Origin: a virus | Length of the DNA stretch: 64,000 nucleotides | Reading direction: 5' to 3' (one strand) | Virus record (IMG/VR): IMGVR_UViG_3300030108_005139 | Span: 1 to 64,000 of that record | Part shown: one piece after another, positions 5,932 to 22,108 of the stretch | Layout: each line of letters begins with the position of its first letter | Numbering within the stretch: position 1 is the stretch's first letter | Translations under genes and position numbers: made by a program | The notes under the pieces: generated by a model | Told to the model about the DNA's origin: nothing | The model's input: the letters and a program-made list of their open reading frames with translations, nothing else | Databases searched by the model: none

Positions 5932-6960
5932 TCAAACCTCGGCTTTATTTAAATGATTCCATATCTTTTGATTTATATCCTTACAAATATATTTACCTTT
6001 CAACCCATACTCTTCTTGCTTTTGAATCCAAGCATCTTCTAAGTCTTTCGGGATATACCCACAATGGTCTTCACCAATCTTAACGCTCTTAGTATAATCA
6101 AGTATCTTTAAATAAGCACCAATAACATTTTCATATTCCTCTGGTGAAGCATTAGTTCTTAACCATCTGTGAAGCGCAGGGTAATTGTTGGTTGTCTTTC
6201 TAGTCAACTCAGCACCATATAAACTGCCAAGCAACTTCAAAGTCTCATCTGGCGAACTGGCAACCAACTCTCTAGTTCCTCTTTTTCTAATTCCAGAGAT
6301 GTGCTCGTAAGTATAATCTTTAATTAAGAACATTGCCAACATAAGTTGTGTTCTGTGCAGACCTTTTAGAAATTGATCATCTGCTGATGGGGGATCTGAA
6401 TGATAAGCAAACTCTAGCCAGTCTGCATTGCCAACCATCCAATCAATCTGGATACCAATATCTTGTTGTTCTCCTTCTTCATTGAACTGAGGGAATAACG
6501 AGAACATCGTGCCAGGTCCAATCTTCTTTATATTAGAAATGATCATATCTGACTCGTTGTTGAAATACTTGGCAAGCTCTGTTAAGAAAGCACGCCAGCC
6601 AATCTCAGCGTCAGTTCTGGTTCTCGCTCTTCGCTTGAATAAGTCAAAGGTGCTTTGCCAAGCATCAGGATCAATGTTCCATTCTTTTAATCCTTCGGGA
6701 GTTACCACACCATCTTTAAAAAAACTTGTTGCATCCATTGCCAAATCGATGTCGCCAGATATTGACTTTTTACCGACAGAACCTAAATAACGAAATTCTG
6801 CAAAGACATCTTTTTTAAGAGGGAATAATTTATTTAACTCTTCACGATATTTATCAAGAGTTGGTTTTATATATTCCAGAGGAATGCTGGCAGCCTTTCC
6901 ATCAAAAACATTTCCGCCCTCGTCAAGAAACTTTCGCCAGTTTTCAAATATTAATTTCAT
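5932..6960 (-). CDS. Pol-beta superfamily nucleotidyltransferase with class-A leader
   Basis: LGSVGKKSISGDIDL (GS..DxD) and a third Asp in IQIDWM; begins MKLIFENWRKFLDE. Confidence 0.75.
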   Translation of the reverse strand: MKLIFENWRKFLDEGGNVFDGKAASIPLEYIKPTLDKYREELNKLFPLKKDVFAEFRYLGSVGKKSISGDIDLAMDATSFFKDGVVTPEGLKEWNIDPDAWQSTFDLFKRRARTRTDAEIGWRAFLTELAKYFNNESDMIISNIKKIGPGTMFSLFPQFNEEGEQQDIGIQIDWMVGNADWLEFAYHSDPPSADDQFLKGLHRTQLMLAMFLIKDYTYEHISGIRKRGTRELVASSPDETLKLLGSLYGAELTRKTTNNYPALHRWLRTNASPEEYENVIGAYLKILDYTKSVKIGEDHCGYIPKDLEDAWIQKQEEYGLKGKYICKDINQKIWNHLNKAEV

Positions 6961-7406
6961 TTCTGTCCCCTAAAATAATCCACGAGTTCTTCTCTTGTTG
7001 GAACCTCTGGACTATTCAAAAACTCTTTATATAGCCACCCATCTGGATTTTGTTTTCTATTTTCGCTCATCCACTCATAAGAAACAGAACCAATATCGCT
7101 GGCTCTTTCTTTATTACATATATTACAAGCCCACGCCAAGTTCCAAAGATCTCCCTTCAGCATCCTTCGCGCTTTGCCATTGTTGCCAGCGGCTGATTGT
7201 GGTATGATGTGTTCAACTGAAATTATTCTATTTTCGGTTAGCCCGCACCAACAACAAGGTACCCCTTCGGTGGCCTGTTTCTTTATCCACCTTCCTACTG
7301 GTCTCTTCACATCTACTGGTAAAGCCTTGACCCAATCAACCCAGACCGATGCGATGCTTGTTTCTTCTTTCAAGTACTTTCGCCAGTTTTCAAATAGTAA
7401 TTTCAC
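6957..7406 (-). CDS. HNH endonuclease with class-A leader
   Basis: CCWCG...SVEHIIPQS...NLAWACNICN; begins MKLLFENWRKYLKE. Confidence 0.85.
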   Translation of the reverse strand: MKLLFENWRKYLKEETSIASVWVDWVKALPVDVKRPVGRWIKKQATEGVPCCWCGLTENRIISVEHIIPQSAAGNNGKARRMLKGDLWNLAWACNICNKERASDIGSVSYEWMSENRKQNPDGWLYKEFLNSPEVPTREELVDYFRGQK

Positions 7407-7768
7407 TTCTGCTTCCTATAAACCGGAATCTTTTTTATCCCTAAGCGCTTTGCTGCTTCCAATCTATGGTGTCCATCTAGCACATAAAAAAACGATTCAC
7501 TAGTTCCACTTTTTTCTGTTGGGGTGTAATCCTCTTGCCCTTTTAGTTTGTAGGTCACAACAGGCTTTTGATTACAAACTTCTATAGGGGGAAAATTACC
7601 AGAGTCAATTTGTTTCATTTTTTTTTGAATTACCTCTTCGCACTCTCTTGAGGGACATTCGTGCTCTTTACCGTGACCCAATTCTTCTGTTGGGATTAAT
7701 GTGGCAACATCAACGTAAAAAACCCGCTCATTTAAAAATCTTTTCCAGTTTTCAAATAGTAGTTTCAC
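7403..7768 (-). CDS. ParB/sulfiredoxin-like domain protein with class-A leader
   Basis: PPIEV...YVLDGHHRLEAAKRLGIKKIPV; begins MKLLFENWKRFLNE. Confidence 0.85.
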   Translation of the reverse strand: MKLLFENWKRFLNERVFYVDVATLIPTEELGHGKEHECPSRECEEVIQKKMKQIDSGNFPPIEVCNQKPVVTYKLKGQEDYTPTEKSGTSESFFYVLDGHHRLEAAKRLGIKKIPVYRKQK

Positions 7769-8985
7769 TTCTTGTTGGTCTTTTTAACAGAGTTGATATA
7801 TTTTCTGTAAACGCCAGCAGCGGACTTCTTTCCGGCTGCTTTGGCTCTTTGTTCCATTGCAACGGCTGCTTGAATTTTGTGAGCGTGTGAACGGCCTGAC
7901 CTTTTAATCTTATTAACACTTGCTTCTGCATCCTTTGCGGTTGCAAACTTCAATCCGTGAATTGTCCCTTTTGGATCTTCATCGGTGTAAAGATCACTGT
8001 GTTTTTTAGACTTGGCGGGTTGTCCTTTTTTGCGAGGTATTCTCGGGTTTTTCTTTTCATTGGTTCTCTCACCTTTTTTAGATCTAGTTTTTTGGTTTTT
8101 GCAGAATTGCTTCATTGTAAAACCTTTTGGATTAGCGCATTTGTTTTTTCTTTTAGATCGCTCTTTTTCTGACCACTTTTCTTGAAGTGTGGTGTCACCA
8201 ATCTTTATTGTAATACCGGAGGGTTGCCCACCATTTAGCGACATCATACGATCATAGGCGTTTGTTCTTACGTCTGACAGTCTTCCCAAATACCCATTTC
8301 TTCTCAAGACTTTAAATGCAAGGTTTTCTGGAGAAAACTCACCTCCTTGTTCCAGTCCGCACTTACGAAAGTCTCTGATTCTATCTCGTAACCGAATCGC
8401 CTCTTCGCGGGCTTCTTCGTACCTTCCGGCAGCAAATACGTCCTCGACATCTTCTATCAAGTCCATAAGCGCTTGTGCTTTTTTACCAACTAGAGGCTCA
8501 TCGATTGTAACCTCTCTATAAGTTGGCTTTGTTTGCCACTCATTATACACTAGGGAATATATACCGGTTGACATATGTGGCTCACCAGTGTCTTGAACAT
8601 AAAGCTCCACTTCGTGTGGGCCAATCTTAATATTATGAACCTTATTCCAATTAGCCCGAACACTTCTAAAATAGTCTTTTACTAAGTCCATAGGAGCATT
8701 GATATCATTAAAATTTACAAGAATGTGTAAATCAATGTCAGACTTTTCTGACCAGTTGTAGTTGGCTGCAGAGCCAGTGATAATTATATCAACAATTCCA
8801 GCATCTTTTAAATCTAAACCACTCCAAAAATCATTGACAATATCGTGCAACCTACTTGCTACTTCTGGTCGTAGTTTTTCACCATCCCAAACTTTTGGAT
8901 TAAGTTCTTTCTTTAATTCAAAGGTTGAGAAATCAAAGTCTAATTCTTCTAGGTATTGTCGCCAATTTTCAAAAAATAATTTCAT
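7765..8985 (-). CDS. nucleotidyltransferase with basic C-terminal modules and class-A leader
   Basis: ITGSAANYNWSEKSDIDLHILV and VELYVQ; basic tail modules follow LQE and TNE; begins MKLFFENWRQYLEE. Confidence 0.8.
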   Translation of the reverse strand: MKLFFENWRQYLEELDFDFSTFELKKELNPKVWDGEKLRPEVASRLHDIVNDFWSGLDLKDAGIVDIIITGSAANYNWSEKSDIDLHILVNFNDINAPMDLVKDYFRSVRANWNKVHNIKIGPHEVELYVQDTGEPHMSTGIYSLVYNEWQTKPTYREVTIDEPLVGKKAQALMDLIEDVEDVFAAGRYEEAREEAIRLRDRIRDFRKCGLEQGGEFSPENLAFKVLRRNGYLGRLSDVRTNAYDRMMSLNGGQPSGITIKIGDTTLQEKWSEKERSKRKNKCANPKGFTMKQFCKNQKTRSKKGERTNEKKNPRIPRKKGQPAKSKKHSDLYTDEDPKGTIHGLKFATAKDAEASVNKIKRSGRSHAHKIQAAVAMEQRAKAAGKKSAAGVYRKYINSVKKTNKK

Positions 8986-9938
8986 TTCTTTAGTTCTTTT
9001 ATATTTGCCTGCAAACTGGTAATGTTTGCATCGGCTGCGTTGGCAGCATCTTTATCCATATTCTCCAAATAAAATCTATTAATATTATTGGACAATTGTT
9101 CAATTTGATCGTAGATGTCAAATAAAACTGTACCCAATCGTTCAAAGTAGTTATTTGTTATCTCTCTAAGTTGTGTTTTTGATCCAAAGCCTAGTGTGCC
9201 AATTAAGTGACCACCGTTCACAACGCAGGACATCTTAAGACCATCGCCGGTACCACAATCGGTTGCCTTTTGTTTACCTACATCACCAGCATCAAAATCA
9301 CCTGCCACCCCAAGCTCTGCACTGCCAACAGTAAACTTATAAAAATCAATTGATAAAACCTCTTGTTCTTTGTGTGATTTGTTTTTAATCGCAACCACGT
9401 ATGTCACTGGCTGCCCTTGTTCTCTGATTGATTCTATAAGTTTATCATAAGAGCCTCCCACATATTTTTCTCTTCCACCAAAGAGAAATTTAAGACTCCA
9501 TTTTTCTGCTTGCCCTGCGGCTTGAACTTCCACGTCAGCAATTTCACCCTCAACAGCGGGGATCATTTTTCCACCCAACATTGCAGAAAGTAGTGATTCA
9601 AATAGAAAACCACCAGTTTGTGGGTTGAAATCACTAATGACAGAGGCTAAGACCTCTAGAAACATTAAATTAGATAGAATCTCTGATACGTCTTTTTGTT
9701 GCTGACATTGTTCTTCGCAGTCAACAACAAAACTGTTTAATGAGTTAAGTTTTGCTACAAAGTCGTTTCCTGGAATTCTTGCTATAAAGTTTTCAACTAA
9801 CCTACGGTCTTCGCTATCGGGCTCACCCCACTGATCTGATATTCTATATCTGGGTAATTTAAGAGAATATTCTTTTGTTTTCTCGGTAGTTTCTGCCTCA
9901 ACGATAAACTTTCGCCAGTTTTCAAATAATGGTTTCAT
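8982..9938 (-). CDS. possible PD-(D/E)xK nuclease-like protein with class-A leader
   Basis: GFLFESLL...IADV...WSLKF pattern; begins MKPLFENWRKFIVE. Confidence 0.5.
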   Translation of the reverse strand: MKPLFENWRKFIVEAETTEKTKEYSLKLPRYRISDQWGEPDSEDRRLVENFIARIPGNDFVAKLNSLNSFVVDCEEQCQQQKDVSEILSNLMFLEVLASVISDFNPQTGGFLFESLLSAMLGGKMIPAVEGEIADVEVQAAGQAEKWSLKFLFGGREKYVGGSYDKLIESIREQGQPVTYVVAIKNKSHKEQEVLSIDFYKFTVGSAELGVAGDFDAGDVGKQKATDCGTGDGLKMSCVVNGGHLIGTLGFGSKTQLREITNNYFERLGTVLFDIYDQIEQLSNNINRFYLENMDKDAANAADANITSLQANIKELKK

Positions 9939-9959
9939 TTAATTACATTACTCCCTTTG

Positions 9960-9969
9960 TATAAATAGT
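9960..9969 (-). promoter_or_regulatory. candidate late promoter ACTATTTATA
   Basis: Intergenic, ~22 nt upstream of ATG 9938; motif recurs before other virion genes. Confidence 0.6.
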
Positions 9970-9990
9970 CGCATTTTTTAGTTGTAGAAA

Positions 9991-10416
9991 CTAAAAAGAA
10001 AGAATGGCTTTTTTGATTAAAGTAATCTCGTATGATTCAAAGACTGTCTTATAATCATCTATTTCTTTCATATCTACCCAAGCATATTCATCGTGTTCAA
10101 AACTTAACACGACCTCATCACCAGAAAACTTATTAGTGATGAAATGATATATCATCCCAAAACTATGCTTAGACCTTTGTAATAATAACTTTAGATCCTC
10201 TGGATCTACCGACAATCCACTTTCTTCCAAGGTTTCTCTAACTGCACCTTGTTTTGGTGTTTCACCATCTTCGACGTGACCACCAGGTGGACCCCAGTGG
10301 CGTGGCTTAAAACTAGCCCCTTCTCCTCTCAATAAGAGAAGGATCTTCCCGTCCTTGACAAGAATAACATTTGCTCCCCTGTTATTCTTTGACATCCCTA
10401 TCTTGATCCTTATCAT
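9991..10416 (-). CDS. NUDIX hydrolase
   Basis: NUDIX box GGHVEDGETPKQGAVRETLEESGL. Confidence 0.93.
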   Translation of the reverse strand: MIRIKIGMSKNNRGANVILVKDGKILLLLRGEGASFKPRHWGPPGGHVEDGETPKQGAVRETLEESGLSVDPEDLKLLLQRSKHSFGMIYHFITNKFSGDEVVLSFEHDEYAWVDMKEIDDYKTVFESYEITLIKKAILSF

Positions 10417-10862
10417 TTGATTTCGCTAACTGCAAACGCAATACCAATTGTCGCTGCAACGCCAATAATAATACCGCCAGCAAACCACCAGTGACTATAA
10501 TCTCCATTATCTGCCTCCAAGGCTATTTCTGTAAGCCTTTCTATCTCGTCGTCTTTAATCTCCATTATAGAGTTATATCTTTCTTGTAGTGCCTCCAAGC
10601 TTGCAACAGTGCTATCCAACGATAAATTACACATTGCTTGTTGTCGGTCTTCTGCGTATTGGATGCGAAGTTCGCACTCTGTTTGATTTGCTTCTTGTTC
10701 AGCGAGCATCTGTGCAACTGCTGCTGAGTTCAGGAGAGTTCCTGTAAATGGTGCGGCTTGTCCTTCTCTGATGTCTGTTATAACTGGCTCTTCGTCTTGT
10801 GCCCAGACAAGGGGTTGGAAGGCCAGTAAGCAGATTAGAAAAGGGATTAGTAGTCTCATCAT
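10413..10862 (-). CDS. membrane protein with signal peptide, coiled coil and C-terminal TM (possible spanin-type lysis protein)
   Basis: N-terminal MMRLLIPFLICLLAFQPLVWA-QD; C-terminal WWFAGGIIIGVAATIGIAFAV. Confidence 0.6.
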   Translation of the reverse strand: MMRLLIPFLICLLAFQPLVWAQDEEPVITDIREGQAAPFTGTLLNSAAVAQMLAEQEANQTECELRIQYAEDRQQAMCNLSLDSTVASLEALQERYNSIMEIKDDEIERLTEIALEADNGDYSHWWFAGGIIIGVAATIGIAFAVSEIK

Positions 10863-11440
10863 CTATTTCTTCCAACATATGCCTTTATTTTAGTTGGATT
10901 AAAAATAATCTCCCCTCCTTGGTCAATATTACTACCTTTTAAAAAAGCAGCAAAAACTCTATGCCGACCACCTAAAATATCAACAACCTTGTCACCTTCC
11001 ATTTTAAGTATAACTGGCTCGTGTTCACCCTTGCCAAGACCGGGCAATGTTTTAATAATTCGTTGTATTTTTTGTTGATACTGATCCATTGGAAAATTTG
11101 GATTTAAACCTAAATGTTTATCCATCAAAAACTTTCTCTCTTCGGCACTCAAATCTTCCCACTTTAAATCCAAAACAACTGGATTTTTAGTCCAGGTTAA
11201 ATCATAGCGGTCATATATTTCTTTGGCATATTCATCAGTTTTAAAAAACTTTTCTAAACCTATTTTATTTATATCATCTGTTCTATCAACAGCATAGTCT
11301 TTCACCCCCTCGTGCCCATACATATCATTAAATACAAGATCTGGCAAATGAGGGAATACTTTATTTTTGAGGGCTTTTTCAAAGCCTTTAAATCTTGACT
11401 CTATTAAAAAAAGCCTCCAATTTTGCATTACAAATTTCAT
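10859..11440 (-). CDS. ParB-like domain protein with variant class-A leader
   Basis: EPVIL...ILGGRHRVFAA...IKAYVG; begins MKFVMQNWRLFLIE. Confidence 0.6.
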   Translation of the reverse strand: MKFVMQNWRLFLIESRFKGFEKALKNKVFPHLPDLVFNDMYGHEGVKDYAVDRTDDINKIGLEKFFKTDEYAKEIYDRYDLTWTKNPVVLDLKWEDLSAEERKFLMDKHLGLNPNFPMDQYQQKIQRIIKTLPGLGKGEHEPVILKMEGDKVVDILGGRHRVFAAFLKGSNIDQGGEIIFNPTKIKAYVGRNR

Positions 11441-11453: not shown

Positions 11454-11720
11454 TTATTCTTCCATCGTTTCTGATGGGACAATCAGATAATCTCTAGCCT
11501 TGTTAAGATAGTCTGACGCCAAAGTCAACTTACTCATCCACCAAGAAGGAAGTTCTTCATCAGGACGACCCTCAAGGGCTTGCAGGATTTGTACTGCATC
11601 TTCAGTGGCTGTTTTTAGTTTCCTAATGGCTGACGGGACATCTGTGTGTCCGTCTTCGTTTATGTTTGCCTCAAGTTCTTCCTTGATAATTTGTTTGAGT
11701 TGTGTTTTTGTAATCTTCAT
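11454..11720 (-). CDS. small helical protein with class-B leader
   Basis: MKITKTQLKQIIKEEL followed by an LPSWWMSKLTLASDYL domain. Confidence 0.8.
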   Translation of the reverse strand: MKITKTQLKQIIKEELEANINEDGHTDVPSAIRKLKTATEDAVQILQALEGRPDEELPSWWMSKLTLASDYLNKARDYLIVPSETMEE

Positions 11721-11721
11721 T

Positions 11722-12225
11722 TTATTTTTCCTGCAACTTTGCCAACGTCCTCTCGTATGCTTGGATATATGCTACGCTTTTCGGGAGCATATTTGGATTA
11801 GAGCCTAACTCTATTTGGGCCTTTCTATCGGCCATTATTTTTTGGTCTTTGGGTTTGCCGTCTTTCGCATCTTGTACTCCCTGGAGTCCGGCTTTGTATG
11901 CTATTTCATATGAAGCCCTTTGTATCCAACGCTTACCGGGTTGCGCTGTCGGAGGGGCTGATTGTTCGCCTTTTATCGCATCTTGTATTGCCCGTTCTAT
12001 GTCTTTTTTTGTTTTTTCCGTCTCTTTCCTATAGTATTCCTGATCTTGCTTGTATTCCTCTGGGGTTTTCCTGCGATAAAATGGTTCTCCTCTTGTACTC
12101 CAGGATCTTCCAGTAGAGCCGTATTTGACCAGTTGATCGTCGCGGTATGTATCATATTCCTCTTCACTGAGAAGTTGTAGTTCCTCTAAGATAATCTGTT
12201 TGAGTTGTTGTTTTGTAATCTTCAT
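11722..12225 (-). CDS. hypothetical protein with class-B leader
   Basis: MKITKQQLKQIILEEL; AGGAG RBS. Confidence 0.8.
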   Translation of the reverse strand: MKITKQQLKQIILEELQLLSEEEYDTYRDDQLVKYGSTGRSWSTRGEPFYRRKTPEEYKQDQEYYRKETEKTKKDIERAIQDAIKGEQSAPPTAQPGKRWIQRASYEIAYKAGLQGVQDAKDGKPKDQKIMADRKAQIELGSNPNMLPKSVAYIQAYERTLAKLQEK

Positions 12226-12239: not shown

Positions 12240-12623
12240 CTAATCCACATCGCCCAGTCGAAGTTCCTCGTCATCGCCGAGATCAAACGCCGGTGTGGGT
12301 GAGTCTTTCGCTACCATATCACCAATATGATCCTTAATCTTAGATATCATACTGTAGGCATCAGCAGCCATTCGGTGAATTTCATTTAGAGCTTCTATTC
12401 TCCTCTCGACCTCGGACTCGGAGTCTCCACCATATAAATCAACTTGTTCTCCAGACTCCATTGAGTCTGGTTGGGTTATCTCCTCGATGTCCTGAAGATG
12501 TTTAGTGATTGTTTCAAGATCAGTGAGTAAGTTCTCGTCATCTCCTTTGTATTCCTCTTCCTCTAAGCTTCTTGCAAGTTCTTCCTTAATGATCTGTTTG
12601 AGTTGTGATTTCGTAATCTTCAT
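12240..12623 (-). CDS. acidic hypothetical protein with class-B leader
   Basis: Start placed at ATG 12623 (MKITKSQLKQIIKEEL) after an AGGAG RBS. Confidence 0.8.
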   Translation of the reverse strand: MKITKSQLKQIIKEELARSLEEEEYKGDDENLLTDLETITKHLQDIEEITQPDSMESGEQVDLYGGDSESEVERRIEALNEIHRMAADAYSMISKIKDHIGDMVAKDSPTPAFDLGDDEELRLGDVD

Positions 12624-12624: not shown

Positions 12625-12888
12625 TTAATCTCCTTTCCTTGCAAGAGACTGATCATCGTGAATTATTTTATCAAGATCGGCTGCAAGGGGTGAGCCGACC
12701 CCTTGTGCGAGGCCATAATAATCTTCAATAGCTCGCATCATAACTTCGCGTTTGGCGTCATCGAGATTGGTTGGTTTTACAACTGTGAACTTCCCAACGG
12801 GCCTTTTTTCCCACTCAATGTCGCCTTCTTGGATTCTACCAAGTTCTTCTTTGATAATCTGTTTGAGTTGTGATTTCGTAATCTTCAT
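12625..12888 (-). CDS. small hypothetical protein with class-B leader
   Basis: MKITKSQLKQIIKEEL; GAGG RBS. Confidence 0.8.
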   Translation of the reverse strand: MKITKSQLKQIIKEELGRIQEGDIEWEKRPVGKFTVVKPTNLDDAKREVMMRAIEDYYGLAQGVGSPLAADLDKIIHDDQSLARKGD

Positions 12889-12889: not shown

Positions 12890-13474
12890 TTATTTTCCTC
12901 TTTCGGCTTTGCTAATTTCTACAGCACCAAGTTGTGCTAGGGCTGCTTTTTTAGTTCTGTGTGGTTTTTTAGAAAGATGTTTGCCACTCTTTGAAGTTAC
13001 AAAATAACCACCCTTTACTTTTTTTATTTTCTCTTCTAGTTCTTCGTCTTTGCTTCCTTTTGCCTGCCATTCATATGACACCTTATCTTTTGATATCGGC
13101 CCGCCAGCAGCCCAAGTATAACAGGATCTTGCTGAGTGGCACTTGAAGTGGTGCATCCAACAATATCCTAAATAGCCCTCTTCATCCTCAATCGGTTCTG
13201 AAGTTGGACCAGGCATACATTCTAACATTCTTGGTGAGATATCAAAAGCAATACAGTTAGAACATTTTGATTTTTTTGCAACCTCTGGTTCTGTATTCCA
13301 GTGTTCTGCTGCTCTTTCCCAATACTCATCGTCAGCAAGATTAAGCGGACCATACTGAATATGCTCTGCTTTAATGGCTGCATTTCTGTTCTTTGTGTTA
13401 AGCTCCAGATCCTGTGTGGCATCGGGACACTCTAAACGTGCTTCTGTTTTTCCTATGATAATTTTAATTCCCAT
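12890..13474 (-). CDS. Cys/His-rich metal-binding protein with basic C-terminal module
   Basis: CSNC...YCWMHHFKCHSARSC; basic tail after LEE; begins MGIKIIIG. Confidence 0.7.
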   Translation of the reverse strand: MGIKIIIGKTEARLECPDATQDLELNTKNRNAAIKAEHIQYGPLNLADDEYWERAAEHWNTEPEVAKKSKCSNCIAFDISPRMLECMPGPTSEPIEDEEGYLGYCWMHHFKCHSARSCYTWAAGGPISKDKVSYEWQAKGSKDEELEEKIKKVKGGYFVTSKSGKHLSKKPHRTKKAALAQLGAVEISKAERGK

Positions 13475-16119
13475 TATTCTGGCCTCTCTCCACTTCGCGT
13501 GTATCTTTCCTCATCGGATTGTGGTCGTCTTGTAGGTTCTTCCTCTTGAGTTTCTTCACCTGAAGTCCTGTATCTTCTCAACGCTTGTCTAAGTTCTTGT
13601 TGTGCCTCAGATGGTGGAGAAGAAGGAAGTTCTTTATCTTCATATTTTTTAACGAACTCTCTGTCATCGTCAGTTACGTGCCAGTATTGGGCTCGCTTCA
13701 TATAACCCCTAATAGAACTTGCTCTACTTCTAAGATCCCAAATCTCCTGTGATTTTTCATTGTACGCCCTTACATCCTCTCGTCGGATTGGGTTTTCCTG
13801 AATGATTTCAAACATACCACGTATTAGTTTTTCAAGATTTTTTCTGTTTGTTACATCGGCCATCTCGTCGCGTGTTTTCTTTAGGTCAGCCTCAAAGACA
13901 ACCAATGGCACAAGAAACTCTTCAATCCTATATTCCATATCCTCTAGAGATACTAGACCTCCTTGGGTTCGTTCAGCACCTCGACCCTCGGAGGCTTGTA
14001 TTACCTGCAACCTTGCAGATTTTGTTGCAGAGTCTATTCCGTTGTAAATTGCATAACCCCTGTCTAGAAAACGTTGCTCAATTGTACCCATACTCCCAGC
14101 CGTCGTGCGATCTCTTGCAACTTCTCTTTCAGCCTCAGACGTTAAAAAATTATATAATGGGACTATATTTCTTGGAATCAAGCCGTTTACAACAATTGTT
14201 CCTTTCTTTAAGGCTCTTACATTATCAAGAGATGTTGCTTTTTCGTATTCCACGTCCTTTAGGTTGTTGATAAATCCAACAAGTTTTTTCATATACTCAT
14301 CGTTTTTGTACTGTGGATCTGTAGAGATCTTAATTATATGAGCGTAATACAATGTGGCATTTCTCATAACATCATAATTTAAAGCATCGTGGCCTGGATA
14401 TCTAAACTCCACATATTTACGATACGGTAAGTGTTTGATATTAAACCCCATTTGTTTTGGAGAGGTATATCGTGTAGAGACCTCAACAGCGTTTGAAAGT
14501 GCTTTCTTCACAGCATCAAAGTCTCTCTCTGTTAAATCTTTGATAACACTAGTCGTTTCTTTGTTGTCACCAGTGAGTTTCCAGATACCGGGCCTAACTT
14601 CTTGTGCTACTTCATTTTGAACAAGCGTTGCGATGTGATTGATAGCATCTTTTTTAATATCGCCTGCCCAGCCGCTATATCTTCTGCTTTCAAACCCTTT
14701 TGTTGCGAACTCGTGATTTAGGAAAAGCATTGCCTTCATTAAATCATAATCTTCAATTGGGTCATCATCTTCGTCCAAGATTCCAACATTGGTATGCAAG
14801 CCAGTTCGATTGTCCATAAAGAAATTGTCTTGATTCTCAAAATCTGTGAAGAATGTTTCAAGATATTCCAATGCCTCTTCTAATCCAGTAATATAGGCTG
14901 GGTAGTCCATTGAAAACTCAACGTGAGGATCGGGGGCCAACGAAGCATCTTCTTCAAGCTTAATATCACTAGCATATTTTGCCATAAAGTTAGGAAGATG
15001 TTCATACATAAGTTCGTGCATATCTTCTGCACCACCTTCGTCTTGGCCAGGATAAACATCGTAACGGTCGTAATATTCCTGCTCCAAATTATAGCCAAAA
15101 TTGCCTTCTAGGTAATCAACAGGGTCACTTTGAAATTCTTCGTATTCACTATTAGATTGCTCATCTATATACTCATCAATTGCATCATCAATCATTTTAG
15201 CCATTGCTGTTAAGTGCGGTGATTGACTATTACGAAACTGATATGCTATGTTCTGCATCGAACTAAGTGTGGCATATCTTTCGGGCTCCAAGAACGTGTC
15301 AGAAATGAACGTATCCATTTCATCCATAATCCCCATAATAAGCTCATCGGTTCCCAGGACTGCCTCATAAAAAGTATCTAAAGGAATCACCTTGTCAAAA
15401 TAACGAACTTTAGGAAACCCAGACCATTCAGCATCTAAATCAAAAACATATCTTTTAAATAATTCAACATTGTCAACTCCTGACAAAATGTGAATGAGTT
15501 GTTCTTCTTCATCTTCCGGGTCAAGTTCTAAGTTTCTTTGAATTGCTTTTGTTTCTGTGTACTCCTCTAGCTCTGTTTTAATTAATGGATGTTCCAACAA
15601 TAATTTTAAGAAACTGTTTGCTTCTCGGGAACCATCTTTAGAAATCATTTCTAGTGTTCGTTGATACAACTCGGGGGCACCATAATCTGCCAGACTAATA
15701 GCCATCTCAAACAATAAAATTAAGCGATCTCTACGTTCATTTTGTGCTTGTGGTGGGATTCCAATAACTTCTTGATCAACATATTTGTCTACAAGTCCCT
15801 CAGAATCAACAATGTAATCTTCTAAAAAATTATATTCATAGAATTCTGATAGGTCTCTCTCAATTACATTTTGATAAAAGTAGTCTTGATCCAGATAATT
15901 TCTGGCAAACTGCTCTAACGTTGGAAGGTCTCCTCTTCCAGCCGCACCGGCTGATTGATTAGAAAGCAATTCAATTTCATATGAAATAGTAAAGCGTTCG
16001 CCTGCTTCTAGAATAGCGGCTTTATCAGATTCCTTGAACTCTTGAATCAGTTCTTCTTCTAATATTTCTTCTTTTTCTTCGTTTCTAAATTTTCGCCAGT
16101 TTTCAAACAGTGATTTCAT
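13474..16119 (-). CDS. putative amidoligase (COOH-NH2 ligase type) with class-A leader
   Basis: SYEIEL, EDASL..VEF, TGLHTNVG, YVEFRYPG; ATG 16119 gives MKSLFENWRKFRNEE. Confidence 0.75.
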   Translation of the reverse strand: MKSLFENWRKFRNEEKEEILEEELIQEFKESDKAAILEAGERFTISYEIELLSNQSAGAAGRGDLPTLEQFARNYLDQDYFYQNVIERDLSEFYEYNFLEDYIVDSEGLVDKYVDQEVIGIPPQAQNERRDRLILLFEMAISLADYGAPELYQRTLEMISKDGSREANSFLKLLLEHPLIKTELEEYTETKAIQRNLELDPEDEEEQLIHILSGVDNVELFKRYVFDLDAEWSGFPKVRYFDKVIPLDTFYEAVLGTDELIMGIMDEMDTFISDTFLEPERYATLSSMQNIAYQFRNSQSPHLTAMAKMIDDAIDEYIDEQSNSEYEEFQSDPVDYLEGNFGYNLEQEYYDRYDVYPGQDEGGAEDMHELMYEHLPNFMAKYASDIKLEEDASLAPDPHVEFSMDYPAYITGLEEALEYLETFFTDFENQDNFFMDNRTGLHTNVGILDEDDDPIEDYDLMKAMLFLNHEFATKGFESRRYSGWAGDIKKDAINHIATLVQNEVAQEVRPGIWKLTGDNKETTSVIKDLTERDFDAVKKALSNAVEVSTRYTSPKQMGFNIKHLPYRKYVEFRYPGHDALNYDVMRNATLYYAHIIKISTDPQYKNDEYMKKLVGFINNLKDVEYEKATSLDNVRALKKGTIVVNGLIPRNIVPLYNFLTSEAEREVARDRTTAGSMGTIEQRFLDRGYAIYNGIDSATKSARLQVIQASEGRGAERTQGGLVSLEDMEYRIEEFLVPLVVFEADLKKTRDEMADVTNRKNLEKLIRGMFEIIQENPIRREDVRAYNEKSQEIWDLRSRASSIRGYMKRAQYWHVTDDDREFVKKYEDKELPSSPPSEAQQELRQALRRYRTSGEETQEEEPTRRPQSDEERYTRSGERPE

Positions 16120-16125: not shown

Positions 16126-16662
16126 TCAATCCTTCTTTTTAGATTTTTTGCCCCACTTCTTACCTTTCCCTTTCGTTCCACAGGCTGCTGGGGTTGGCCG
16201 ACAAGCTGGATATTTTGAACGCTTTTCACCTTTTGATCTACCACAGGCTTTGCACTTCTTTCTTCCAGTCTTTGGATCCTTTCGGCAGGTATTGCAATCT
16301 ACCCAACCTTTACTTCCGCCTCCCCCAGCGCGGCTAAACCACCCGTGGAGCCCAGACTTTTTCTCTTTTGAGTAGTCAGTCCGTGCTTTCTTTTTTTTTT
16401 CGTCTAGACAAGCTTCAATTTCTTCATCGATAATACGATACAAGTCTTCCTTGACACCTTTCCAGATCTCTCCTCTGCGACATCTTACAACAGCGCCAGA
16501 GGCATATGCAGAAGGCCACACATCGTATTTGCGCTTGGCAATGCGTGTACAGCGATCATCTTTTTTCTTTTTAGCCTTCTTCTTCTTTTTCTTCTTTTTT
16601 TTCTTCTTCTCATCTAAGAAGGCTTCAATTTCTTCATCAATAATTTTTTCAATATTATCCAT
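16126..16662 (-). CDS. highly basic Cys-containing protein with poly-Lys tract
   Basis: Two IIDEEIEAxLDE motifs, each followed by a Lys run; PSAYASGAVVRC and YPACRP modules. Confidence 0.8.
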   Translation of the reverse strand: MDNIEKIIDEEIEAFLDEKKKKKKKKKKKAKKKKDDRCTRIAKRKYDVWPSAYASGAVVRCRRGEIWKGVKEDLYRIIDEEIEACLDEKKKKARTDYSKEKKSGLHGWFSRAGGGGSKGWVDCNTCRKDPKTGRKKCKACGRSKGEKRSKYPACRPTPAACGTKGKGKKWGKKSKKKD

Positions 16663-16664
16663 AA

Positions 16665-17072
16665 TTATTTATTCCCTGGAACATAATGAATTCCAAAAGC
16701 GTTGCTCAATGCTCTTGACAGCCCTTCAGGATTGTCGTGATTTTCTTTGACGAGTTCCTTTATTCTTCTTTCTTTATTTAGTTTGTTACTCACCAAATCA
16801 TCTTCCAATTGTTCATCAAGTTGTTCCATAACTTCCTGATGAACACGAATAATCTCATCTCTTTGGGCAATCTCGTTAGCGTGTGATTCATTAAGGGTTT
16901 CTATTTGCTCTTCATAAGATTTATTTCTTGTCCTCAACAAGTCTCTAGCCACATCAGATCTCCTACTAAAAAGGGCCGCCAAAGCAAGAACAGCGATCAG
17001 GGGAACATACCAGTGGTTTTTAATCCACACCCAAGATCGCTGCAAGAAATGCTTGACTGCCAGCCAAGTCAT
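16665..17072 (-). CDS. inner-membrane spanin-like protein
   Basis: ATG 17072 overlaps the holin-like stop (ATGA); single N-terminal TM followed by a long coiled coil. Confidence 0.55.
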   Translation of the reverse strand: MTWLAVKHFLQRSWVWIKNHWYVPLIAVLALAALFSRRSDVARDLLRTRNKSYEEQIETLNESHANEIAQRDEIIRVHQEVMEQLDEQLEDDLVSNKLNKERRIKELVKENHDNPEGLSRALSNAFGIHYVPGNK

Positions 17073-17260
17073 TTGCCGTGTTTCCAAGTCGCGGCTAAGT
17101 CCGCAAATCCTTGAATACCTACATATCCAATCGTAATTGCTGTCCATTGCTCATTATTAATAAAGCCCAAACATAAAAATGTTGAGGCAGTGATCCAAGA
17201 TAAAAGTTTACGACTGATTATTTTATTGAGCCCTTTATCTAGTGCTTGTTTCATACTCAT
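17069..17260 (-). CDS. small two-TM holin-like protein
   Basis: 63 aa from ATG 17260 after AGGAGG; two hydrophobic segments after SRKLL; M-S-M possible dual start. Confidence 0.55.
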   Translation of the reverse strand: MSMKQALDKGLNKIISRKLLSWITASTFLCLGFINNEQWTAITIGYVGIQGFADLAATWKHGK

Positions 17261-17276
17261 AAACCCTCCTTGGTAA

Positions 17277-17354
17277 TTACGAGCAACAGCATCCGTCACA
17301 GGCACAGTCACAATCGCACCTACACTGCCTACATCCATTTACAATCTTATTCAT
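17277..17354 (-). CDS. 25-aa cysteine-rich metallothionein-like microprotein
   Basis: MNKIVNGCRQCRCDCDCACDGCCCS (9 Cys); AGGAGG at 17364-17369, 9 nt upstream; fills the gap between genes. Confidence 0.7.
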   Translation of the reverse strand: MNKIVNGCRQCRCDCDCACDGCCCS

Positions 17355-17616
17355 TTGACAAATCCTCCTTTTCTTCCTCCAGAGCAAACCCATAAATATG
17401 CTTCATTATAATCTTGCTCATAGGTTCTTTTAACATTATTGCATTCGCGGCTTGTTGAGCCAGCCCTCGATCTACCTTTGTAACATCCTCAATAACGTCA
17501 GCAATTTTGCCTGCAATCTGATCCCTGTAATCAGTTGGATCAGAGGCATACTCGTGTTTTTCCTCTTCAAGAGTCTCTAAAATAACTTGTTTTAATTGGG
17601 ATTTAGTGAACTTCAT
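17347..17616 (-). CDS. small hypothetical protein with class-B leader
   Basis: MKFTKSQLKQVILETLEEE; AGGAG RBS. Confidence 0.8.
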   Translation of the reverse strand: MKFTKSQLKQVILETLEEEKHEYASDPTDYRDQIAGKIADVIEDVTKVDRGLAQQAANAIMLKEPMSKIIMKHIYGFALEEEKEDLSNE

Positions 17617-17640
17617 ATTGGTCTCCTTGGAAGGTCCACC

Positions 17641-17650
17641 AATAAATAGT
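17641..17650 (-). promoter_or_regulatory. candidate late promoter ACTATTTATT
   Basis: Immediately after the Mre11-Rad50 stop, ~25 nt before the first gene of the accessory/lysis array. Confidence 0.6.
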
Positions 17651-20600
17651 CTACTGATTTACAAATGCAAGACCATTTTTTTTGTCAATTGTGATTTGTT
17701 GGTCAACACAATCTTTAAGAGAGTCAAGGTGGGAGATGAGTATCACGGTCTTAAAGTAAGATTTGACAAGATCAAGAATACGAATAAAACTTTCCATATT
17801 CTCTTCGTCTAGTGCTGTGCCTGGTTCATCAAGGATAAAAATGTCTCCTTGTGGCAGTGACGAAACTGTCAATAAAGACAAACGAATAGCAATTGCAGCA
17901 ATAGACTTTTCGCTTCCACTGCCCATTGCAATTGGTCTAGGATCGTACTTTGGATGTTTGATTAAAATATTTAATCTGTTTTCGTCGTTTTCAAAGTACA
18001 CTTCAAAGTCAACAATATTTGCAAGAATCTTAGCAATCTCATTGTTGATTACTGGCAGCCTCTTCTTAATGATATCGTATGCAATACCGTTACTGTGCAT
18101 ACACCGCATAAACAGATCGTATGCTGAGAACTCTTCGCGAAAGTCAGCCAGTTCCTGCTTTTGTTCGTTGATTGAAGCAAGCTTCTGCTCAAGTGAGCCG
18201 TGTAGCTTGTAAAGTTCCAATATGTCTTTTTCACAAGATTCCAGTTGCTCTTGTGACTTTTGAATTAGTTGATCACCTTGATCTCGCTCAGAGATTAACT
18301 CCTCTAAGTTTTCAATTGCTTCTTTGTTTTTTTCGTACTCTTGAATCTTTTGTTCTAGAAGAGAAATTTGCTCCTCGGCCTTTGAAATCTCGTGCTTTCT
18401 TTTTTCTAGCGAGAGTTCAACTTTAACAATTTGGTTTTTTATCTCTCCCTGTTTTGTTTTTAACTTCTCGTATTTGTCCAGGTAGCTCTGTATCTGTTCA
18501 GGGTTAAGTTCCTCAATAACCACTTCAGTCTTTTCTTTTTTGAATAGAAAATCCTGTACTTGTTGGTGGATGTCGTCTTTTTTATCCAATGCATCATAAG
18601 CATCCTTAATAAACTTGCAGTGACTAAATTCTGAACCACAAGGAACTTCCTTTAGAAGACAAGACTTGTTGTTGATATCCTTTTGTTTTCTTTCAAGAGT
18701 ATCTAGATCTTCTTGAATGTGCGATAGGATTTCTTCAAGGTTGTTTAAATTTTCTTGCCTGTTCTTATATAAATCGATATCAAAGTCATCAACAAATTTG
18801 CTTATCTCCATCAAAACTTCTTGTCTGTTTGATAGTTTTTCTTCTTCTTGGGCTTGAAGGAGAACTAGGTCGTTATAAGAATCTTTCAAATTAATCAATG
18901 ATTTATTGATATCTTTGACGTTAATAATCTCTGCTGGAATTGAATCTATTTTGCCGGTAAGATACGCGACCTTTTCTTGAAGAGAGGAGATATCCTCTCT
19001 AATCTTCTCGCACTCTCTTTCCTTCTGCTTTGTTGTGTTTTCATTTTCTTCTAGTTCATATTCGGCTTCTTTAATTTCTTGATCAAATTCTTTCCCTTCA
19101 AGTCTTTTTAATGCACCCTTTAAATCAGAGGCATCGTCTTTTGCCATCTTGAACTTCTTGTCAAAGATATGAAGATCTAAAAACTTTGCTAAGATTTCCT
19201 TTCGCTTCGTTGAACCCTCGTTGATAAACTGGAGAGAATCAAGCTGAGAAGCCATAGAGGTTAACAAGAAATCATCTAATGAGCCAAAAACACGACGAAT
19301 GTTTTTGTCTGTTTCTATTCTTGTTAAGCCGTTTAGTGGCGTATTAGTTTGCGTAACTTCGTTGTATTTGTTGAATTCAACGTTTGTCTTTGCCTCTGTC
19401 GAGGTTTTGCCTTTTAATTTCCTAACGTACTTCTCTAAATCTCTTTGGATGACATAGTGCTCGTTACCAATCTCTATTTCAACTAAACCACTGGCTGTGT
19501 TTTCGTTTTGATTAATAACGTTGACATTCTTGCGCTCGTTTTTAGAAGTCGAATTAAAGATTGTAAAAAGAAGCGAATCGATGATTGAACTCTTCCCAGA
19601 GTAGTTTTTACCAAAAATTCCAACAGTTCCACGTAGTTTTTCAAAATCGATAGCATTGCTTTCTCCGTAGTTAAAAAGGTTATCCCACGACAATCGTTTT
19701 AGTTTCCAGTTGATGTTTCTGGACACATCTTCGTTTTCTTCTGCGAGCTTGTTATATTTTTTATTTAACTTAAAAACTTTTTCTAGGATCTCATCGCTTA
19801 CCTCGTAATCTTTAAGGTAATCTTCCATTAGCTCTTCTTGGACTTCTATATCACGGAGGTCTTCCTTGTCAAAAAGAACGCTTAAATCCTCACCAACATT
19901 TCCCTTATCTGTTGCTCTATTGAGGAATGATATGGACTCTGGTCTAAAACGAACCTTTGCAACATCAACCGCTTTGCGAAGCTTGTTGAGAGACAAGTTG
20001 TTGTTAGAAATAACACGAAGACGAACGCCTTCGGGTATATCAATGTCTTTTGGAAATTTGCCCTTTGAATTGAGTTCTATTGTGATGAAGGGCTTTGGAT
20101 TGTTTAGACGAATATGCTTGCAGGTATATTCATTTTTATTTTTTAAATCCCACAACAAATACCCCTTATCGTTGGTTTCACCAAAGTTTTGTTGAACTAA
20201 GGAGCCTGCATATCTAACCTTACCTTTGTCGTCCATAATTTGATTTGTCTTATGGATATCGCCAAGAAAGATGTAATCGTGTGCTTCAAAACATTCTGTT
20301 GAGTCATCGCTCTCGTTAATAACCCAACCAGCATCTGTTTCAGAACCAGCAATCGCTCCGTGATATAACCCAATATTTACTGCATTTGGATCACTTGGTG
20401 TTTGCCAATTGTCTGGATCAAAGATTGATAGACTATTAAATTTAAAGTCCAAGCCATCTTCTGTGTTAATTAAAACCTCTCTTGAGTCCCTAATCAAATG
20501 GAGATCAGGGTGCTCAAGTGCCTCAACCACTGGAGTCACAGCATCTTGACGTGCCATATTCCTTAGATTGCCGTCGTGGTTTCCAAGTATAATGTAAGTG

Positions 20601-20815
20601 GGAGCAATGTCAGCAAGGTTACGAAACAAGTCCGTTGCCATCTTGACAAACTCTGGTGAGATTTGTGTTTTTGTGTGTGCAATATCACCGCACAAAACAA
20701 TGCAGTCTACATCTTGTTCTTTTAGTGATTCGTAGAACTGATTAAAAACTTCGTTGTATTCATAATGATATTTTAAATTTCGTATGTGGATGTCTGCTGT
20801 ATGTGCTATTCTCAT
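17651..20815 (-). CDS. fused Mre11/SbcD nuclease and Rad50/SbcC ATPase (T4 gp47-gp46-like)
   Basis: HTADIH, GNHD and GDIH phosphoesterase motifs; Walker A GKNYSGKS; long coiled coil; Walker B FILDEP; ISH. Confidence 0.93.
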   Translation of the reverse strand: MRIAHTADIHIRNLKYHYEYNEVFNQFYESLKEQDVDCIVLCGDIAHTKTQISPEFVKMATDLFRNLADIAPTYIILGNHDGNLRNMARQDAVTPVVEALEHPDLHLIRDSREVLINTEDGLDFKFNSLSIFDPDNWQTPSDPNAVNIGLYHGAIAGSETDAGWVINESDDSTECFEAHDYIFLGDIHKTNQIMDDKGKVRYAGSLVQQNFGETNDKGYLLWDLKNKNEYTCKHIRLNNPKPFITIELNSKGKFPKDIDIPEGVRLRVISNNNLSLNKLRKAVDVAKVRFRPESISFLNRATDKGNVGEDLSVLFDKEDLRDIEVQEELMEDYLKDYEVSDEILEKVFKLNKKYNKLAEENEDVSRNINWKLKRLSWDNLFNYGESNAIDFEKLRGTVGIFGKNYSGKSSIIDSLLFTIFNSTSKNERKNVNVINQNENTASGLVEIEIGNEHYVIQRDLEKYVRKLKGKTSTEAKTNVEFNKYNEVTQTNTPLNGLTRIETDKNIRRVFGSLDDFLLTSMASQLDSLQFINEGSTKRKEILAKFLDLHIFDKKFKMAKDDASDLKGALKRLEGKEFDQEIKEAEYELEENENTTKQKERECEKIREDISSLQEKVAYLTGKIDSIPAEIINVKDINKSLINLKDSYNDLVLLQAQEEEKLSNRQEVLMEISKFVDDFDIDLYKNRQENLNNLEEILSHIQEDLDTLERKQKDINNKSCLLKEVPCGSEFSHCKFIKDAYDALDKKDDIHQQVQDFLFKKEKTEVVIEELNPEQIQSYLDKYEKLKTKQGEIKNQIVKVELSLEKRKHEISKAEEQISLLEQKIQEYEKNKEAIENLEELISERDQGDQLIQKSQEQLESCEKDILELYKLHGSLEQKLASINEQKQELADFREEFSAYDLFMRCMHSNGIAYDIIKKRLPVINNEIAKILANIVDFEVYFENDENRLNILIKHPKYDPRPIAMGSGSEKSIAAIAIRLSLLTVSSLPQGDIFILDEPGTALDEENMESFIRILDLVKSYFKTVILISHLDSLKDCVDQQITIDKKNGLAFVNQ

Positions 20816-20846
20816 TTACACCTATCCATTAAAATGGTTTGACACC

Positions 20847-20875
20847 ATTATACAATAGTGTTTTAGGTTAGTCAA
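20847..20875 (-). promoter_or_regulatory. sigma70-type promoter for Mre11-Rad50
   Basis: TTGACT (20875-20870), 17-nt spacer, TATAAT (20852-20847), ~31 nt upstream of ATG 20815. Confidence 0.8.
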
Positions 20876-21800
20876 GTGGATTTGTATTTTTTTTCAGATA
20901 TTCGCGATCCGCCCACACACTACCAAGGTACCTCTCGCCTCGATCACAAAGCATAGTAACAACAGTTCCCGTAATGTTATTTTCTTCTATCCACTTTTCT
21001 GCTGCCAATATATTGGCTCCGGCTGATATTCCTACTAGTAAGCCGTTTTCAACTGCTAGTCTTCTTGCTCGCTCTTTAGCATCCTCAGTCTTTATTCTAA
21101 TAATTTCGTCAAACAGAGAAGTATCAGCTAAAAAATCTTCTCCGTCGCTAATGCCTTGAATTCCGTGCTGATCGCTTGGCTCGTCAGGCTTGACCATTAT
21201 AATTTTTGTGTTTAAGCTCGGGGTTTTTTGTATGAAGCTATGAACACCCATTATTGTTCCACCTGTGCCTACACCCGACACAAATCCAGCCCACGCAGTA
21301 TTACCTGGAATTTGCTCGTATATCTCAGGGGCTGTTTTGTGCATATGGCACTTTATATTGTCGCTATTTTCAAATTGACACGGAGACCAGCTGTCATCGA
21401 TACAGGCTAAGATTTCGTTTCTTTTCTGTATCGCAGCATCGAAATCACTAGCAGCAACCTCCAATATGTCGGCTCCAAATGCACGCATCATCTGCTTTCT
21501 CTCTTCTGACATATTTGAAGGCATTACTATCTGGACTGGGTTTCCCATTGCAGCACCAAGTGCCGAGAGTGAGATGCCGGTATTGCCGCTTGTTGCTTCA
21601 ACTAAAAGAGTAGTTGACTTTATTTCTGAGTTTTTTATCGCTCCTTCAACAACATACGATATCATTCTGTCTTTAACAGACCCTGTAGGGTTTGCTGTTT
21701 CAAGTTTTCCATACAGATTTTTTGAGATCTTAACTAAAGGTGTATTGCCTACAGCTTTTAAGAAATTTAATGCTGGGCTTTCTTTAAAACCTGCAGGCAT
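20868..21800 (-). CDS. cysK: cysteine synthase (PLP-dependent, CysK/CysM family), auxiliary metabolic gene
   Basis: GNTPLV, KLETANPTGSVKDR (PLP Lys), EATSGNTG, GVGTGGT, HGIQGI, DRGERYL; cysK versus cysM not resolved. Confidence 0.9.
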   Translation of the reverse strand: MPAGFKESPALNFLKAVGNTPLVKISKNLYGKLETANPTGSVKDRMISYVVEGAIKNSEIKSTTLLVEATSGNTGISLSALGAAMGNPVQIVMPSNMSEERKQMMRAFGADILEVAASDFDAAIQKRNEILACIDDSWSPCQFENSDNIKCHMHKTAPEIYEQIPGNTAWAGFVSGVGTGGTIMGVHSFIQKTPSLNTKIIMVKPDEPSDQHGIQGISDGEDFLADTSLFDEIIRIKTEDAKERARRLAVENGLLVGISAGANILAAEKWIEENNITGTVVTMLCDRGERYLGSVWADREYLKKNTNPLD

Positions 21801-21829
21801 ATGCTAACCTCCGCTAAGGAATATCTTCC

Positions 21830-22108
21830 TTATTCCTTGTAAAAAGTCATTGTACCCTTGGGGGTAATAGAAAAGAAACTGCGATCAAGCAAAGCTTCTA
21901 AGCGATTTAAACCCATAATCTGTATCTGGCGTACATCATCGGCATCCATTTTATTTATAATTTCTTCTACATCAACATCTACTCCATCGGGAAAACCCTT
22001 AGATGCACGAGAAACTGCGTCCGTAATGCCTGCCAATCTATCTTTTGGTGATTGAGAACTCAACTCCTCTAAAATCATTTTCTTTAATTGTGACCTGGTA
22101 ATTTTCAT
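21830..22108 (-). CDS. small hypothetical protein with class-B leader
   Basis: MKITRSQLKKMILEEL; GAGG RBS. Confidence 0.8.
   Translation of the reverse strand: MKITRSQLKKMILEELSSQSPKDRLAGITDAVSRASKGFPDGVDVDVEEIINKMDADDVRQIQIMGLNRLEALLDRSFFSITPKGTMTFYKE

Follow-up and report, generated by a model that had tools for sequence, protein, structure and literature searches.

How do thirteen otherwise unrelated phage proteins come to begin with one of only two short peptides? The question is raised by a 64-kb stretch of DNA (positions 1 to 64,000 of IMG/VR record IMGVR_UViG_3300030108_005139, hereafter the window), which is the first part of a 78.9-kb contig (G000) estimated to be 33% complete. The contig is a fragment of an uncultured marine phage that is T4-like by its large terminase (TerL) and portal, and practically all genes in the window lie on the minus strand. 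Seven of them start with a peptide of consensus MKxxFENWRxF/YLxE (tag A) and six with MKITKSQLKQIIxEEL (tag B); in the table below each of these genes starts at its higher coordinate. An earlier note on this DNA had listed the thirteen starts, had described the protein bodies behind them as unrelated, and had taken the peptide rather than the DNA to be conserved, and all three observations were reproduced. We propose, as the probable explanation, that tags A and B are portable N-terminal propeptides that would together form a large, two-tag variant of the capsid-targeting system of phage T4.

In a six-frame pattern search of the window, the core of tag A ([FM][EQ]NW[RK]) was found seven times and that of tag B ([TS][KR]xQL[KR]xx[IL]) six times in open frames. 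Each of these matches is the N-terminus of an open reading frame (ORF) on the coding strand and none lies elsewhere; one extra match to the B pattern crosses a stop codon. Beyond the tags the bodies are unrelated, with a mean column identity of 4–6%. Both tags are short amphipathic helices. The logo of tag A has near-invariant M1, K2, E6, N7, W8 and R9, with Leu, Ile, Val or Met at position 12 in 88% and Glu at position 14 in 80% of cases, and its information content drops from ∼3 bits before E14 to <1 bit past it. Tag B is conserved up to position 16, with I12 and E14 at 97% each and a weaker second φ-x-E (φ, hydrophobic) at residues 20–22. The earlier statement that the leaders end at (I/L)-x-E holds for 12 of the 13 window tags, the exception being A7, which ends in R-N-E and has its next I-L-E at residues 20–22.

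The tags are modular. Some body families (NUDIX, NT5C-like, 'CPPATQD' and a family of nucleotidyltransferases) were seen both with and without a tag, and ParB-like bodies are joined to theirs by variable linkers; the tag is therefore no part of the enzyme. Orthologues of A3 fall into more than 120 clusters, and the tag was kept in all 13 that were inspected, with variable tag–body linkers of up to 50 residues. By its orthologues, the untagged NUDIX hydrolase of the window is a case of tag gain and loss. Loose single-linkage clustering seemed to join A-tagged and B-tagged forms of one body, but the links ran through basic C-terminal modules and this cluster was set aside; under stricter criteria just one mixed cluster of A-tagged, B-tagged and untagged members was left.

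A scan of IMG/VR with degenerate DNA patterns retrieved tag A in 90 stretches and tag B in at least 119, with roughly 170 loci sampled overall; the clade-wide figures for tag B, like the ORF and cluster counts for both tags, refer to the matches listed. These include ∼200 distinct A-tagged and ∼200 B-tagged ORFs, and the tag is always N-terminal. Once stripped of their tags, 196 A bodies form 120 sequence clusters and 181 B bodies form 167. The phages that bear the tags are uncultured, marine and T4-like, with genomes of about 185–305 kb, and complete genomes contain 2–8 A genes and 0–8 B genes, all on the coding strand. The major capsid proteins (MCPs) of the A-tag phages are 58–79% identical, and these phages therefore make up one clade. 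Applied to 596 Gb of genomes of bacteria and archaea, the same patterns found no A stretch and six B stretches, in three marine metagenome-assembled genomes (MAGs). Two of the three were checked and both have a gene for a gp21-type (S77) head protease, so the B stretches are probably mis-binned phage. NHDW01000006.1 (305,838 bp; loci L259, L262 and L263), labelled Methylococcaceae MAG TMED69, carries at least five B-tagged genes, and its bin has an S77 gene, listed under another contig number; the contig probably comes from a mis-binned jumbo phage and not from a bacterium. A tblastn search of 50,697 cultured phage records with the tagged proteins and a 21-residue leader retrieved no tag, although the limit on E-values weakens this test. 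Literature searches for the tag motifs themselves gave irrelevant matches only, and no paper with a virion proteome of immuto or Mel-JY01, the nearest cultured relatives, was found; the two-tag feature is apparently undescribed in print.

The closest known parallel is the capsid-targeting sequence (CTS) of T4, which is carried by the internal proteins IPI–III and Alt and is removed by the prohead protease gp21 (Mullaney and Black; PMC9026906, PMC3012670). The first 10 residues of IPIII are enough for encapsidation, residues 8 and 10 govern processing, and the T-even internal proteins are diverse except for the CTS (PMC9026906, PMC3012670); Asp at position 10 (P1) blocks processing (PMC9026906). 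Tags A and B resemble the CTS in being short N-terminal peptides with an MK start, placed on unrelated, fast-evolving proteins and ending in (L/I)-x-E, in T4-type phages whose near-complete records have an S77 protease gene; the genes may likewise be late, and the cargo bodies avoid the cleavage motif. They differ from it in that they are longer (14 and 16–22 residues) and are two unrelated tags with different cargo classes, in their 2–8 A and 0–8 B genes per genome, and in their hundreds of cargo families, many of them enzymes, known here from sequence alone.

By this analogy we infer docking, cleavage, packaging and injection. Tagged proteins would be made late, alongside the head proteins, and the amphipathic helix would dock them onto the assembling prohead core. 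The S77 protease would then cut behind the Glu of the tag's terminal (L/I)-x-E, that is, at E14 in tag A and at the I-x-E of residues 12–14 and/or the φ-x-E of residues 20–22 in tag B, which would free the cargo within the head for delivery with the DNA.

If the tags are substrates of a gp21-type protease, they should occur in phages that encode one, as the earlier note had expected. Peptidase_S77 was found in all 15 tag-bearing records that are at least 82% complete (12 retrieved through tag A and three through tag B, including phages of 273–289 kb). It was not found on the window's own contig (79 kb, 33% complete). In a complete relative with terminal repeats (G002, 204 kb) the order of genes is a B gene, a 178-residue protein, TerL, portal, a 273-residue and a 180-residue protein, a small membrane protein, the S77 protease, a small protein, the scaffold and the MCP. 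The window ends within this order, at a 178-residue homologue of the 180-residue protein, and from the synteny with G002 and a further genome (G026) the protease is therefore expected just past window position 1. The clade MCPs have two invariant motifs, LLE50 and L[RK]E59, at the boundary of their N-terminal propeptide, the counterpart of the T4 delta domain, in the stretch aligned with the gp23 maturation site LTE65|A of T4. In the clade proteases LL[RQT]E and LLTE are conserved close to the N-terminus, comparable to LIE9 of T4 gp21 (the T4 sites in gp23, gp21 and the CTS were taken from the T4 sequence itself). Tagged genes lie within the head module, directly beside the protease gene, in four of 18 genomes; one of these is the closest relative, which has a canonical B gene placed between the protease and the head gene that follows. 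Common neighbours of the arrays are TerL (41 loci), the portal (28) and the protease (15).

Several head-module proteins were considered in this connection. Derivation of tag B from the MCP N-terminus was rejected, since the clade MCPs start with MSILEKLTEG. In relatives (L091–L095, L243–L255) the gene just downstream of the S77 protease encodes a conserved protein of 127–189 residues, here called PPP (MKKSELKKILKPLVKECIKE), which starts with MKKSELKKILKPLVKECIKEVLFEEG. Its N-terminus is weakly B-like, and PPP was discarded as a bearer of tag B (median 3.2 bits against a hidden Markov model (HMM) of tag B, a score reached by 1.3% of non-B N-termini). Alignment of PPP to T4 gp68 and gp22 with hhalign was negative and the G002 copy has no PHROG match; PPP is possibly a clade-specific prohead core protein. 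The conserved head-module proteins of 273, 180, 147 and 135 residues have no Pfam or PHROGs match. The 273-residue post-portal gene of G002 (105657–106478) contains 14 [LIVM]xE sites, comparable to the T4 scaffold gp22, and the 273/275-residue post-portal protein is a candidate prohead core or scaffold protein.

The tagged genes also share a putative promoter. Three copies of the motif ACTATTTAT head the tagged runs of the window, and in total the window has five copies, all on the coding strand; those ahead of A5, B5, B6 and a structural gene (27401) lie at a distance of 30–43 nt. B6 has a copy to itself; all other tagged genes belong to two long motif-headed runs, which extend into terminase and portal. 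In G002 the motif ACTATTTA(T/A) precedes the scaffold gene and several tail or structural genes by 30–47 nt and the sheath gene by 80 nt, and it is also found upstream of the A array and the B cluster. Over all loci, the share of genes with the motif within 70 nt upstream is 12% for A, 10% for B and 5% for other genes. By these signals the tagged genes may be late.

An independent indication that a protease acts on the tagged proteins comes from their bodies. If these proteins meet a protease that cleaves behind the Glu of (L/I)-x-E, their bodies should avoid this motif. The number of [LI]xE sites was therefore compared with the number expected from the composition of each protein, and the ratios were bootstrapped over clusters. 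The observed/expected ratio (O/E) is 0.94 (0.86–1.03) in cargo bodies versus 1.29 (1.24–1.34) in untagged proteins of the same loci. In the glycan-synthesis, replication and tail or structural genes of G000 and G002 it is 1.28–1.33 (1.28 in the glycan run). The related [LI]xD is raised in cargo (1.33 versus 1.14). Avoidance is confined to spacing i+2, with no difference at spacings 0, 2, 3, 4 and 5, and is strongest with Leu or Ile at P3 and weaker with Met, Val or Cys. It holds separately for A cargo, for B cargo and for the 13 window genes, which have 34 [LI]xE sites against 38.6 expected (comparison set, 323 against 238). By contrast, the motif is enriched in the protease family (2.65) and in the 273-residue post-portal family (2.11). 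In T4, IPII and IPIII have no [LI]xE besides the IAE of the CTS, and gp22 (16 against 5.7 expected), gp68 and gp21 are enriched.

These data bear on two alternatives in which the tag stays on the protein. In the first, which we consider unlikely, the tags are uncleaved docking helices that recruit their clients to a shared partner other than the capsid; a phage or host hub, a chaperonin, the machinery of replication or nucleotide synthesis, or the membrane could play this part. The amphipathic character of both tags would suit such a role, as would the AlphaFold model of A3, in which the tag is a helix of low confidence (pLDDT ∼56) detached from a well-predicted body (pLDDT >88). Many A cargos are enzymes of nucleotides or nucleic acids that could gain from co-localization, cleavage is here a prediction, and relatives encode look-alikes of GroEL and GroES, recognized by their N-terminal sequences. 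Docking of this kind leaves unexplained, however, why [LI]xE is avoided at one spacing and replaced by [LI]xD in both cargo classes, why the tag is at the extreme N-terminus and ends in Glu, and why the genes have a late-type motif and are repeatedly placed beside the protease. In G002 the chaperonin-like genes are at 167553–169130 (GroEL-like) and 150701–151018 (GroES-like), both judged by N-terminal sequence only. The second alternative, for which we see little likelihood, is a tag that directs proteins to the virion and is never removed, serving as a structural plug on the portal, the inner shell or the scaffold. It shares the evidence from genomic context with the propeptide explanation and would accommodate the A tags that lack Glu; the conserved φ-x-E at the tag end and its avoidance in the bodies nevertheless point to an acting protease, and the T4 precedent is one of cleavage.

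Next in order is the notion that the conserved element is DNA, with the leaders acting as microhomology for shuffling genes within hyperplastic arrays or as optimized regions for translation initiation, and the peptide as a by-product. Neighbouring array genes do touch or overlap, at ATGA and GTGA junctions, relatives have very different arrays, and leader DNA in the window is 0.71–0.75 identical. However, identity is at background ahead of the starts (0.32–0.34) and again in the codons behind the leader, pairwise comparison of the window leaders gives 48 (A) and 76 (B) synonymous differences, and over 179 A leaders Leu3 is encoded by five codons and Arg9 by six, even as Trp, Asn and Glu are near-invariant. 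Given this free use of synonymous codons and the background flanks, the peptide is what is conserved. Recombination may use the leaders, yet it cannot account for conservation of the peptide or for avoidance of the motif in the bodies, and we regard a DNA-level origin as very improbable. We attach just as little credence to a role of the tags as signals read by a dedicated modifying enzyme (for example, of the radical-SAM type) or by a degron system, which would match the logic of leader-guided maturases in having one tag on many unrelated proteins, since no family besides head and packaging genes stands out among the array neighbours. A radical-SAM/SPASM partner was looked for and rejected: PF04055 is absent from G000 and from three of four complete tag-bearing genomes.

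Several points weigh against the propeptide explanation itself. The tags have no significant similarity to the T4 CTS (MKTYQEFIAE), with which only M1, K2 and E6 coincide, and the relationship is therefore one of analogy, in that the tags would work like the CTS, and not of membership by descent. E14 is missing from about 20% of A tags, and A7 departs from the motif as described. The presence of tagged proteins in virions and their cutting are predictions from sequence, and no cultured tag phage was found in what is a weak test. Many cargos look like housekeeping enzymes of nucleotide metabolism, and the reason for injecting these is not obvious. Since every T4-like phage has an S77 protease, its co-occurrence with the tags carries no independent weight. 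Single families vary widely in their [LI]xE O/E (0.76–2.65), so that avoidance is a property of the two cargo classes, averaged, and not of single proteins. The motif count in the window is marginally above chance (5 versus 2.0 expected), and the motif is taken as late because of the genes it precedes (scaffold, sheath and tail); the candidate late promoters that the earlier note had placed ahead of the array are represented by this motif, which structural genes share. Array positions differ between genomes, and the location just upstream of terminase and portal given in that note applies to the window and is common elsewhere without being general. Its central claim, capsid-cargo targeting, draws partial support from the T4-like nature of the phage, the S77 genes of relatives, the L-x-E sites, the promoter motif and the avoidance in cargo.

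The two tags carry different kinds of cargo. Bodies behind tag A have a median length of 228 residues, and those with Pfam matches are enzymes: protein kinases, NUDIX, AAA_33 kinases, NT5C, poly(A)/CCA polymerase, HD, RNase T, RNase H, GNAT and DnaJ families are represented, and further types include ParB-like proteins, HNH proteins, nucleotidyltransferases, phosphatases and nucleases. Bodies behind tag B have a median length of 110 residues and are mostly acidic (median pI 4.9), and three of 150 match Pfam; from their sequences these small acidic orphans look inhibitor-like. A more specific proposal, which we advance tentatively and which may well prove wrong, is that an abundant uncultured clade loads its heads through two channels, with A supplying host-directed enzymes and B small acidic inhibitor-like proteins, and that both sets are trimmed by the head protease.

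Injected proteins are the first phage effectors to face the defences of the host, and beyond a few model phages they have been found by virion proteomics only, which is impossible for uncultured ocean phages. An address tag combined with a footprint of protease exposure would make metagenomes catalogues of candidate injected effectors. Tag and footprint already mark nearly 290 cargo families in roughly 170 loci, including kinases, nucleotidyltransferases, nucleases and many small acidic orphans, which are natural candidates for anti-defence functions. If the proposal is right, the complete repertoire of injected proteins can be read from sequence, through the tag and the avoidance of the cleavage motif, and this repertoire is a large, fast-evolving library of effectors for counter-defence and takeover. 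The CTS principle, documented for a handful of T-even proteins, would then extend to a distant lineage with two independent tags and on a larger scale, and the tags would offer new loading peptides for engineering capsid cargo.

Other systems share parts of this scheme. Inner-body and ejection proteins of the giant phages phiKZ, 201phi2-1 and SPN3US are cut after Glu by gp175/gp245 proteases (PMC5694885, PMC7411985, PMC10052503). Here too the head takes up many proteins, a protease related to gp21 cleaves them behind the Glu of a short motif, and the propeptides are thought to mediate incorporation, but these propeptides have no single shared short tag, the cargo is largely paralogous and the lineage is different. 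In the Dar antirestriction system of phage P1, DarB, Ulx and DdrA/B are packaged in dependence on DarA/Hdf (PMC9024508, PMC12810830). Defence-countering proteins thus enter the head during assembly and are then injected, in this case by way of helper proteins and ordered assembly rather than a common cleavable N-terminal tag. Outside phages, the cargo-loading peptides of encapsulins are short, portable peptides that send diverse enzymes inside an HK97-fold shell; they differ in being usually C-terminal and uncleaved, and in serving a cellular nanocompartment without DNA or injection.

Within the window, Pfam and PHROGs gave no family match for any B protein or for A1, A5, A6 and A7, PDB sequence searches with A1, A5 and A7 were empty, and an ESM Atlas look-up returned viral hypothetical clusters only. 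The ParB/sulfiredoxin (Srx) fold of A3 is confirmed by its AlphaFold model and Foldseek. Orthologues of A7 in close relatives have 837 residues and keep the tag.

Table. Tagged genes, promoter-like motifs and associated genes of the 64-kb window (aa, amino acids).
Feature	Coordinates	Strand	Description
A1	5932..6960	-	Tag A (MKLIFENWRKFLDE) and 342-aa body, nucleotidyltransferase-like by eye (GS...DIDL)
A2	6957..7406	-	Tag A, GTG start, 4-bp overlap with A3 stop; HNH-endonuclease-like body (weak Pfam, below cut-off)
A3	7403..7768	-	Tag A and ParB/sulfiredoxin-fold body (DGHHR)
A4	7765..8985	-	Tag A and Pol-beta-type nucleotidyltransferase-like body (weak Pfam); very basic C-terminal region
A5	8982..9938	-	Tag A and 318-aa body, no assigned fold; first gene after promoter-like motif 9961-9969
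A6	10859..11440	-	Divergent tag A (MKFVMQNWRLFLIE) and 193-aa body with GGRHR (ParB-like) motif
A7	13474..16119	-	Tag A (MKSLFENWRKFRNE, ends R-N-E) and 881-aa acidic body; ATG start 16119
B1	11454..11720	-	Tag B and 88-aa acidic orphan (pI 4.4)
B2	11722..12225	-	Tag B and 167-aa basic orphan
B3	12240..12623	-	Tag B and 127-aa very acidic orphan (pI 4.1); internal ATG 12623, right after B4 stop
B4	12625..12888	-	Tag B and 87-aa orphan
B5	17347..17616	-	Tag B (MKFTKSQLKQVILETL) and 89-aa acidic orphan; directly after motif 17642-17650
B6	21830..22108	-	Tag B (MKITRSQLKKMILEEL) and 92-aa orphan; after motif 22144-22152
Motif ACTATTTAT	9961..9969	-	30 nt upstream of A5; heads A5-A1, 129-aa, 190-aa, TerL, portal
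Motif ACTATTTAT	17642..17650	-	33 nt upstream of B5; heads B5 ... A7 ... B4-B1, A6
Motif ACTATTTAT	22144..22152	-	43 nt upstream of B6, inside end of primase-like gene
T4-type large terminase (TerL)	3430..5004	-	44% identity to TerL of Flavobacterium phage immuto
T4-type (gp20-like) portal	1496..3424	-	phrog_213
275-aa post-portal protein	685..1512	-	Family rich in [LI]-x-E (O/E 2.11); candidate prohead-core substrate
178-aa head-module protein	156..692	-	In relatives the next genes are a small membrane protein, then the S77 protease
NUDIX hydrolase	9991..10416	-	Untagged in window; orthologues on other contigs with tag A
194-aa 'CPDATQDLELNTKNR' protein	12890..13474	-	Untagged in window; orthologues elsewhere with tag A or degenerate A-like tags

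Some further features of the window adjoin the tagged genes. A very basic (pI about 10), Cys-rich protein of 178 residues (16126–16662, minus strand) contains twice an acidic segment, IIDEEIEA(F/C)LDE-KKKK, each copy ending in L-D-E ahead of a basic module, and both segments resemble the second half of tag B (4.4 and 1.8 bits against the B HMM). This protein could be a small polyprotein from which the head protease releases basic, DNA-binding-like peptides. A possible third N-terminal motif, M-x-I-[KRQ]-I-x-I-G, is a small sample and maybe due to chance; its copies are MIRIKIGMSK (NUDIX, 9991–10416), MGIKIIIGK (194 residues, 12890–13474) and MADIQIIIGD (178 residues, 156–692), and the same motif is the conserved start of the 180-residue head-module family in relatives.

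Next to B5, a 1,054-residue ORF (17651–20815, minus strand) resembles by eye a fusion of Mre11/SbcD and Rad50/SbcC, with N-terminal nuclease motifs, a coiled coil and an ABC ATPase end; relatives conserve it (19 loci), and it often adjoins tag arrays. Between this gene and B6 lies a 310-residue ORF (20868–21800, minus strand) that resembles a pyridoxal phosphate-dependent cysteine synthase (CysK/CysM type; PTGSVKDR, by eye) and may be an auxiliary metabolic gene. An open frame of 1,088 residues occupies 32.7–35.9 kb of the window. Genes resembling those for sugar nucleotides and glycosyltransferases form a long run at 59760–64000 that extends along the contig to 78.7 kb, and a similar run lies at 23–52 kb in G002.

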